DNA from: Candidatus Aenigmatarchaeota archaeon
GTDB taxonomy: Archaea > Aenigmatarchaeota > Aenigmatarchaeia > GW2011-AR5
Reading direction: 5' to 3'
Assembly (NCBI GenBank): GCA_016180945.1
Contig: JACPAG010000002.1
Location: 128,210-192,209 of the forward strand
DNA: 64,000 nt
Of the stretch, positions 57,972-58,135 are shown in pieces. The notes under the pieces were generated by a model, which saw only the letters and a list, made by a program, of their open reading frames with translations, was not told the DNA's origin and did not search any database. Both the position numbers and the translations under genes were made by a program. Numbering within the stretch: position 1 is the stretch's first letter; each line of letters begins with the position of its first letter.

Positions 57972-58135
57972 GCCCGCGTAGCTCAGATTGGATAGAGCAC
58001 TTTCCTCCTACCTGCCGCGGAGGTGAACAGAGGACAAAACTTTTTGTCCGATGATGACCTGGCAGGTGAGAAACTTTTTTGCTCTGCAACAGGCTCATAA
58101 GAAAGGGGTCGCGCGTTCAAATCGCGCCGCGGGCG
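57972..58135 (+). tRNA. tRNA-Arg(CCU) with an 89-nt compound intron at 37/38 (58011-58099)
   Basis: GCCCGCG/CGCGGGC acceptor; CTTTC-CT-CCT-A^A-GAAAG; T arm GCGCG-TTCAAAT-CGCGC. Confidence 0.9.

Follow-up and report, generated by a model that had tools for sequence, protein, structure and literature searches.

A probable compound intron in an aenigmatarchaeal tRNA-Arg(CCU) gene, for which ordered two-step splicing is plausible

The archaeal tRNA-splicing enzyme EndA cuts two 3-nt bulges flanking a single 4-bp helix (hBHBh'), or a relaxed form of this BHB motif, and the position at which such introns are most commonly found is 37/38. Nested pre-tRNAs with multiple introns were reportedly described in Crenarchaeota (Thermoproteales) by Sugahara et al. 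in 2007 and Tocchini-Valentini et al. in 2009, and the latter are said to have found sequential rounds of splicing, each made up of two cleavages and one ligation. In the twintrons of Euglena plastids, the inner intron likewise leaves first so that the outer one becomes spliceable. However, twintrons are self-splicing group II/III introns, whereas both units considered here would be protein-spliced BHB introns, and the likeness is one of analogy. Introns may also carry RNAs of another kind: an archaeal box C/D sRNA has a terminal K-turn formed by box C (RUGAUGA) and box D (CUGA), spacers of ~12 nt, and a guide of at least 8 bp with its target at N+5. [quoted passage not shown] The box C/D RNA within the euryarchaeal tRNA-Trp intron (Haloferax volcanii, Pyrococcus sR50) guides Cm34 and Um39 (PMC11408192, PMC7994747, PMC7714728), and the L3 loop of the alpha4 EndAs of DPANN archaea has been linked to disrupted tRNA genes and relaxed motifs (Kaneta et al. 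2018, PMC5829648).

Here, we analyze an 89-nt intron at position 37/38, between A37 and A38, of a tRNA-Arg(CCU) gene from a Candidatus Aenigmatarchaeota genome (G000). As in the crenarchaeal nested pre-tRNAs, at least two EndA-type introns would share one pre-tRNA, and the last BHB depends in silico on the earlier removal of the other intron. Unlike those systems, the host is a DPANN archaeon with a single alpha-type L3-loop EndA rather than an (alpha-beta)2 enzyme. The second intron also lies directly against the intron-exon junction and recruits the old 3' tail to form one strand of its central helix, and the outer intron is a conserved structured RNA that occurs inside genera as a natural series with and without the extra piece. 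Ordered nested tRNA introns are already known, and this locus is a new example of them rather than a new mechanism.

By direct reading of the sequence, the intact gene occupies positions 57972-58135 (+) of the window, by which we mean the whole 64-kb stretch of DNA that was analyzed. ARAGORN, when introns were allowed, reported it as tRNA-Arg(cct) i(39,89), and joining the exons gives a canonical 76-nt cloverleaf with perfect acceptor, D, anticodon, and T arms (Table 1). The gene went undetected by default ARAGORN and by Rfam at the gathering threshold, and Rfam at a relaxed threshold returned noise only. It is the sole tRNA-Arg(CCU) gene detected by ARAGORN with introns allowed in this genome, which comprises 0.99 Mb on nine contigs and is ~84% complete. 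Long or non-canonical introns are present in most of its tRNA genes. Across the whole genome, 15 tRNAs passed the Rfam gathering score, with one more match just under the cut-off, and the long-intron mode of ARAGORN gave ~30, several with doubtful anticodon calls; within the 64-kb window, default ARAGORN found one tRNA. The relatives used for comparison are Candidatus Aenigmatarchaeota MAGs from groundwater and sediments, including archaeon GW2011_AR5 (G026).

Table 1. Positions of the tRNA-Arg(CCU) exons and of the proposed intron units and elements, in window coordinates.
Feature	Position	Strand	Description
5' exon	57972..58010	+	acceptor, D arm, anticodon stem 5' strand, loop C32-A37 (reading, ARAGORN, cloverleaf)
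Acceptor strands	57972-78 / 58128-34	+	direct reading
D arm	57981-98	+	direct reading
Anticodon stem	58000-04 / 58101-05	+	CUUUC / GAAAG; direct reading
Anticodon loop	58005-58010	+	C32 U33 C34 C35 U36 A37; anticodon CCU 58007-09
Unit 1, putative ancestral 62-nt intron	58011..58072	+	in most family members, the entire 52-77-nt intron is its orthologue
x strand, closing helix	58011..58017	+	pairs with y from the first intron base
Invariant GGAGGUGA(A)	58019..58027	+	antisense to tRNA C31-C35 and 16S 3' end; at the place of a box C/D D' guide
D'-like box CAGA	58028..58031	+	CUGA/GUGA/AUGA in relatives; also summarized as C(A/U)GA
Hairpin, canonical stem of putative K-turn	58032..58049	+	7 bp, loop ACUU
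C'-like box	58050..58057	+	3-nt bulge GAU + GA-U-GA; RAUGAYGA in relatives
y strand, closing helix	58060..58066	+	comparative alignment and covariation
Old 3' tail UGAG-AA	58067..58072	+	proposed inner cut after 58072; homologous tails UGUGAA/CGAGAG/AGUGAU/UUGAU in relatives
Unit 2, putative 27-nt secondary mini-intron	58073..58099	+	A / CUU / hairpin UUGC-UCU-GCAA / AGG / CUCA / UA; absent in most orthologues
3' exon	58100..58135	+	A38 = 58100, anticodon stem 3' strand 58101-05, variable loop, T arm, acceptor, discriminator G58135

An initial annotation of this DNA had proposed that pairing of the 3' splice site with the anticodon is impossible and that this site forms a BHB with an internal TGAG instead, and that excising 58073-58099 would leave UGAG-AA/A-GAAAG, recreating a near-canonical BHB with the anticodon arm. 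Our analysis bears out these points, with an outer BHB of the relaxed kind. The 3' strand CUCA-UA/A makes none of four possible pairs with the loop sequence CUCC, so a canonical BHB across both splice sites is impossible. With the internal UGAG (58067-70), by contrast, CUCA (58094-97) forms all four pairs, flanked by the 3-nt bulges AAA (58071-73) and UAA (58098-58100) and followed by a complete inner helix of three pairs between CUU (58074-76) and AGG (58091-93). In an exhaustive scan, this was the sole BHB with 4/4 and 3/3 pairs that matched a true splice site, and 0.26% of 27-mer shuffles equaled it at that fixed position. The same UGAG strand is common to two pairings, with CUCA in the local BHB or, as GAG, with the CUC of the anticodon loop. 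Once the 27 nt are removed, GAG pairs with C32-U33-C34, which gives a relaxed outer BHB with three of the four central pairs, and intron base 1 is able to pair with y. The two true splice sites are never found together in one BHB: the 3' site lies in a perfect local BHB, and the 5' site lies in a relaxed one only after 58073-58099 has gone. Unit 2 has its own BHB with 4/4 and 3/3 pairs, and unit 1 corresponds to the entire intron of orthologues. We somewhat favor the reading that the 89-nt intron consists of two EndA-type introns end to end, a 62-nt unit 1 followed by a 27-nt unit 2.

To place this anatomy in its family, ~45 orthologous tRNA-Arg(CCU) introns were collected, drawing on 70 genomes of the order as well as metagenome contigs. 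These introns share a core of 52-77 nt, and the 32 distinct long-form introns follow a common plan, which runs from x through GGAGGUGA(A/G), C(A/C)GA, the hairpin, NNU-GA-N-GA, and a spacer to y and a tail of 5-6 nt, with A38 after it. The intron of one relative (G013) is 62 nt long and co-linear with the first 62 nt of ours, ending in ...GUCAGG-UGUG-AA/A-GCAAG where ours reads ...GGCAGG-UGAG-AA^A-CUU.... In the alignment of the two, query positions 8-102 are matched first, and the match picks up again at 132 after a step of two bases in the relative. Exactly the 27 nt are therefore missing from the relative, and the co-linearity places these 27 nt precisely at the ancestral 3' splice junction. 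Overall, 25 of the 32 distinct long-form introns stop at the point of the proposed inner cut, whereas in the other seven, from four genera and a metagenome contig, a further 20-35 nt follow at this point. In genera g3, g13, and g17, species with and without a piece are both found, and the junction is otherwise unchanged (for example, ...AGUGAU/A in L113 and ...AGCGAU[30 nt]/A in L114). At least two types of piece, unrelated in sequence, can be distinguished, as serial insertion at one site predicts. Because pieces recur at one junction in series with and without them, this comparative evidence makes it very probable that the intron is of compound origin and that sequence was repeatedly inserted (or lost) right at the splice junction. 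This agrees with the serial insertion that the initial annotation had put forward, since orthologues of the same family stop at the inner cut and unrelated pieces occupy the same junction in other lineages. An RtcB tree proved unsuitable for counting gains and losses of the pieces, as it did not recover the GTDB genus g17 and several of the genes contained inteins or were partial. Short-form relatives (36-41 nt) hold their K-turn inside a canonical hBHBh', with a 3' GGAG that pairs with CUCC. We also note further introns in the D-loop, T-arm, or anticodon stem 5' strand of orthologous tRNA-Arg(CCU) genes, in combinations that differ between genera (L007, L009, L017, L018, L026, L116-L118, L125, and L130).

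The extra pieces follow two patterns of pairing. In the first, the old tail is the partner of the new 3' strand, which makes only 0-2 of four pairs with the anticodon. Alongside our 27-nt piece (L001, UGAG/CUCA, 4/4), this pattern includes a 20-nt piece in L007 from G002 (AGAG/CUCU, 4/4, with 0.003% of shuffles as good), a 30-nt piece in the metagenome contig L135 (AGCG/CGUU, 4/4, 0.17%), and a 31-nt piece in L009 from G024 (CGAG/CUGG, 3/4, 1.3%). In the second, found in three forms from genus g17, including AR5, pieces of 31-35 nt end in a new 3' strand, CGGG, that makes three of four pairs with the anticodon loop and 1-2 of four with the tail; their local helix is not significant against shuffles. 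Both kinds fit selection for a splice-competent fold, and the g17 pieces make clear that added sequence can be present at this junction without forming an intron in its own right.

The g17 pieces, kept despite the absence of a local central helix, also bear on a different account, in which the 89 nt are a single intron removed in one pass. The 27 nt would then be a hairpin expansion, and a broad-specificity EndA would cut the true sites as separate bulge-helix half-motifs (the 5' site by x:y and the 3' site by the anticodon stem), with neither a 58072/58073 cut nor an intermediate. Poor motifs are evidently tolerated in this family, as all standard orthologues have relaxed BHBs only, with 2-3 of the four central pairs. 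The enzyme is in keeping with this. The sole EndA gene found (L031:1189-1806, G000:C3) encodes an alpha-type protein of 205 aa in which both the N- and the C-terminal EndA domain are present. The N-terminus is extended by a Lys-rich stretch, and a second Lys-rich insertion, the 6-residue loop LKKGPKSA, falls between the catalytic Tyr and His. Its sequence RVYERGVQLKKGPKSAKEH aligns without gaps to RVYDIGVIPKKGKRSEREH of the N. equitans alpha protein, whereas the alignment to M. jannaschii has a 6-residue gap. By sequence, this loop probably corresponds to the L3 loop as named in PMC5829648, and the same study associates L3-loop EndAs with relaxed motifs. As in the L3-loop alpha4 EndAs of DPANN archaea, there is a single catalytic-type subunit with a Lys-rich insertion between Tyr and His in a genome with many disrupted tRNA genes, and an alpha4 state is predicted here. 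Neither phmmer nor a 72-sequence family profile found a second EndA subunit in this ~84%-complete genome, from which a divergent beta subunit could be missing. The enzyme appears to tolerate loose motifs and might cut the two true sites independently. However, chance is unlikely to have given three independent pieces a perfect local BHB exactly at the old junction, and UGAG offers the 3' site its only central helix, given that CUCA cannot pair with the anticodon loop. Moreover, the local BHB, if formed, would be cut at both bulges, including 58072/58073, by EndA's two active sites. On balance, we consider removal in a single pass unlikely.

From the anatomy, homology, covariation, and encoded enzymes described here, we infer the cuts, their order, and the ligation under the favored reading of two abutting introns. 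In the first step, a single L3-loop alpha-type EndA would act on the local BHB and cut at 58072/58073 and 58099/58100. A58072 would then be joined to A58100 by RtcB (encoded at G000:C2:35499-36764), or the nicked complex would stay paired. With UGAG freed, GAG would pair with C32-U33-C34 to give a relaxed BHB as in the orthologues, EndA would cut at 58010/58011 and 58072/58100, and RtcB would ligate the exons. Religation between the steps is not strictly required, as the exons could equally be released by three cuts and then ligated once. In evolutionary terms, unit 2 would be a later insertion exactly at the old 3' junction, which brought in a new 3' site strand, CUCA, that pairs with the old tail UGAG and not with the anticodon. 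In the RtcB genes of several relatives (L157, L158, L160, L162, L168, and L169), we observed frames of 900-1000 aa with split matches to a 422-aa RtcB; these most likely reflect inteins, with the RtcB of our genome having none.

The order of these steps would follow from the pairing possibilities. The 5' site at 58010/58011 lies outside the UGAG:CUCA motif, and at least two EndA events are therefore needed. In silico, the outer BHB presents the bulge AA/A followed by the anticodon stem only once the 27-mer has gone, and UGAG is common to both helices. If the outer sites were cut first (58010/58011 and 58072/58073), the 5' exon would be left on A58073 with the 27-nt insert lacking a BHB, and because CUCC cannot pair with CUCA, this product would be a dead end. 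Together, the shared UGAG and this dead end mean that an inner-first order would be structurally enforced. We regard ordered two-step splicing as plausible and, as far as such models allow, slightly the better expectation.

Folding energies complicate this picture to a degree. With the anticodon stem enforced, the best fold with the local BHB reached -31.5 kcal/mol versus -34.7 kcal/mol with GAG on the anticodon loop. For free RNA, nearest-neighbor energies favor the competing fold over the local BHB by 3.2 kcal/mol, and the helix of the local BHB has an ensemble probability of ~2%. These values mildly disfavor the local BHB, which is a further point on the side of one-pass removal. Still, BHBs are often not part of the MFE structure and are captured by the enzyme.

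Without the constraint, the MFE structure pairs CUUUUUU (58074-80) with AAGAAAG (58099-58105) over 7 bp and displaces the anticodon stem. This fold, which engages the 3' half of that stem, could be taken together with the lost anticodon pairing of the 3' splice site to mean that the 27-nt insertion blocks splicing and that tRNA-Arg(CCU) is being lost. A decaying gene would not be expected to keep four perfect arms, and the gene is the only one for tRNA-Arg(CCU) found in the genome. The inserted piece also carries a precise compensating BHB, and similar compound introns persist in several genera. We consider decay highly improbable.

The 62-nt unit 1 of the two-intron reading appears, from its sequence pattern, to be a helix-closed, box C/D-derived K-turn module. 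A CTGCC/GGCAG stem had been recognized at the outset; it is real and slightly longer, comprising the 7 bp of x and y (58011-17 with 58060-66). Helix x:y spans 6-8 bp in all 32 distinct introns, is 100% paired, and has compensatory changes in five of six pairs, and in the K-turn hairpin, which occurs as 31 distinct stems, all three tested pairs covary. For the two helices together, with y located by its complementarity to x, 100% of cells are paired, eight of nine tested pairs are compensatory, and none of 500 shuffles attained the covariation score. CAGA, the covarying stem, and the GAU bulge with GAUGA are invariant over 29 aligned introns, a fit at the level of sequence only. The succession of CAGA, hairpin, bulge, and GA-U/C-GA has the sequence hallmarks of the K-turn that box C/D RNAs form with the order D'-stem-C'. 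By contrast, the third unit that the initial annotation had suspected at GGAG-GT, around 58019-58024, did not stand, as no boundary is present there in ~45 relatives. As an intron boundary, GGAG-GU (58019-24) was rejected: an inner helix is impossible, there being an 8-nt loop only, and the stretch is an invariant part of the K-turn module.

The conserved GGAGGUGA element is 8-9 nt long and can form five Watson-Crick pairs plus wobbles with tRNA C31-C35, or eight pairs with the 16S 3' end, of which it is an exact complement. Applied to this element, the N+5 rule points to tRNA C31, and the UGA part of the element showed no covariation with tRNA nt 28-30. A full box C/D sRNA in our family (f1) was considered and rejected, as 58011-18 holds no box C and there is no CUGA, with helix x:y in their place; D-like NUGA/GAGA tails occur in relatives only. 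In family f2, the same intron has the full layout, in which C (AUGAAGA/AUGACGA), 12 nt, D', a stem-loop, C' (AUGAUCA), 12 nt, and D follow one another (L140 in G044, L015 in G037, and L011 in G050). Its D' guide is conserved and its D guide is variable, and the 12-nt spacers are found in f2 only.

Like the tRNA-Trp box C/D RNA, our intron sits at 37/38, has K-turn boxes, and is antisense to its own anticodon arm, and L7Ae (G000:C4:90324-90596), Nop5, and fibrillarin are encoded in the genome. It differs in belonging to tRNA-Arg(CCU) in another phylum and in retaining only the internal C'/D'-like K-turn, with helix x:y replacing box C and the D guide. Its D' box is CAGA, C31 is not a known site, and the covariation with tRNA nt 28-30 is lacking. 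Genes for Nop5 and fibrillarin lie inside the 64-kb window, at 39883-40488 and 41251-41889. A scan of the genome for ordinary box C/D sRNA patterns was uninformative, with 0-1 strict matches and 26 C...D-only matches versus eight in the control.

Where the extra pieces come from is a separate question. At the DNA level, the piece could be a copy of a small hairpin repeat that colonizes genomes and tRNA introns of this lineage and survives through its BHB-like fit. A GACGC...GCGUC hairpin is indeed common to the L009, g17, and L135 pieces and resembles hairpins in other tRNA introns of our genome, and the 27-mer has a marginal match to the tRNA-Gln intron hairpin (one in 500 shuffles). The 27-mer is nevertheless single-copy in the genome, where the best other match was 14 nt (E = 0.05), and its likeness to the tRNA-Met and tRNA-Glu intron hairpins was not significant. 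We regard a mobile DNA hairpin as a very unlikely source, though a link of the 27-mer to mobile hairpin elements is possible, and such an origin is compatible with two-step splicing. In the metagenome contig (L135, ORJL010834351.1), the piece hairpin GACGCCTAAGGGCGTC is found again downstream of that tRNA gene, at a distance of a few dozen bases, which hints at a mobile hairpin. Two other tRNA introns of our genome (C2:208597-208774 and C8:189500-189623) have near-identical end modules, UAUGGCA-N-UCGA-CUUUU(U)GC-loop-GCAAAA(A)G-GGGA-N/A, which suggests that introns in different tRNAs share modules.

A bolder proposal, which we think quite unlikely, is that new mini-introns repeatedly arise at the 3' junction, which would serve as a landing site that keeps no scar. 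The starting material would be a hairpin element or an excised RNA bounded by a BHB, ligated into the just-cleaved junction of another pre-tRNA by reversal of EndA/RtcB and then fixed in DNA. Separately, and at the same low expectation, unit 1 could function as a box C/D RNP with a single K-turn, with either the 16S 3' end or C31 of its own tRNA as its target. If the landing-site proposal were true, the Aenigmatarchaeota series, with 0 or 1 extra piece in each intron, would be a natural record of archaeal tRNA intron gain.

The origin of archaeal tRNA introns is still open, as a 2026 preprint on Asgard tRNA introns notes in closing. For this question, the tRNA-Arg(CCU) locus offers a clean natural series, in which one conserved intron occurs with or without a second at its splice junction in close species, with at least two unrelated inserts. 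One small enzyme and short transcripts would suffice to test directly in vitro how introns are gained and whether any added intron must supply either its own BHB or a new anticodon-pairing end. Within the lineage, tRNA annotation requires manual work, as about half of the tRNAs of our genome, including tRNA-Arg(CCU), escape default finders. The locus would carry nested, ordered splicing beyond Crenarchaeota into a DPANN lineage whose EndA is a single-subunit L3-loop enzyme, and it may likewise extend intron-borne box C/D-type modules past tRNA-Trp.
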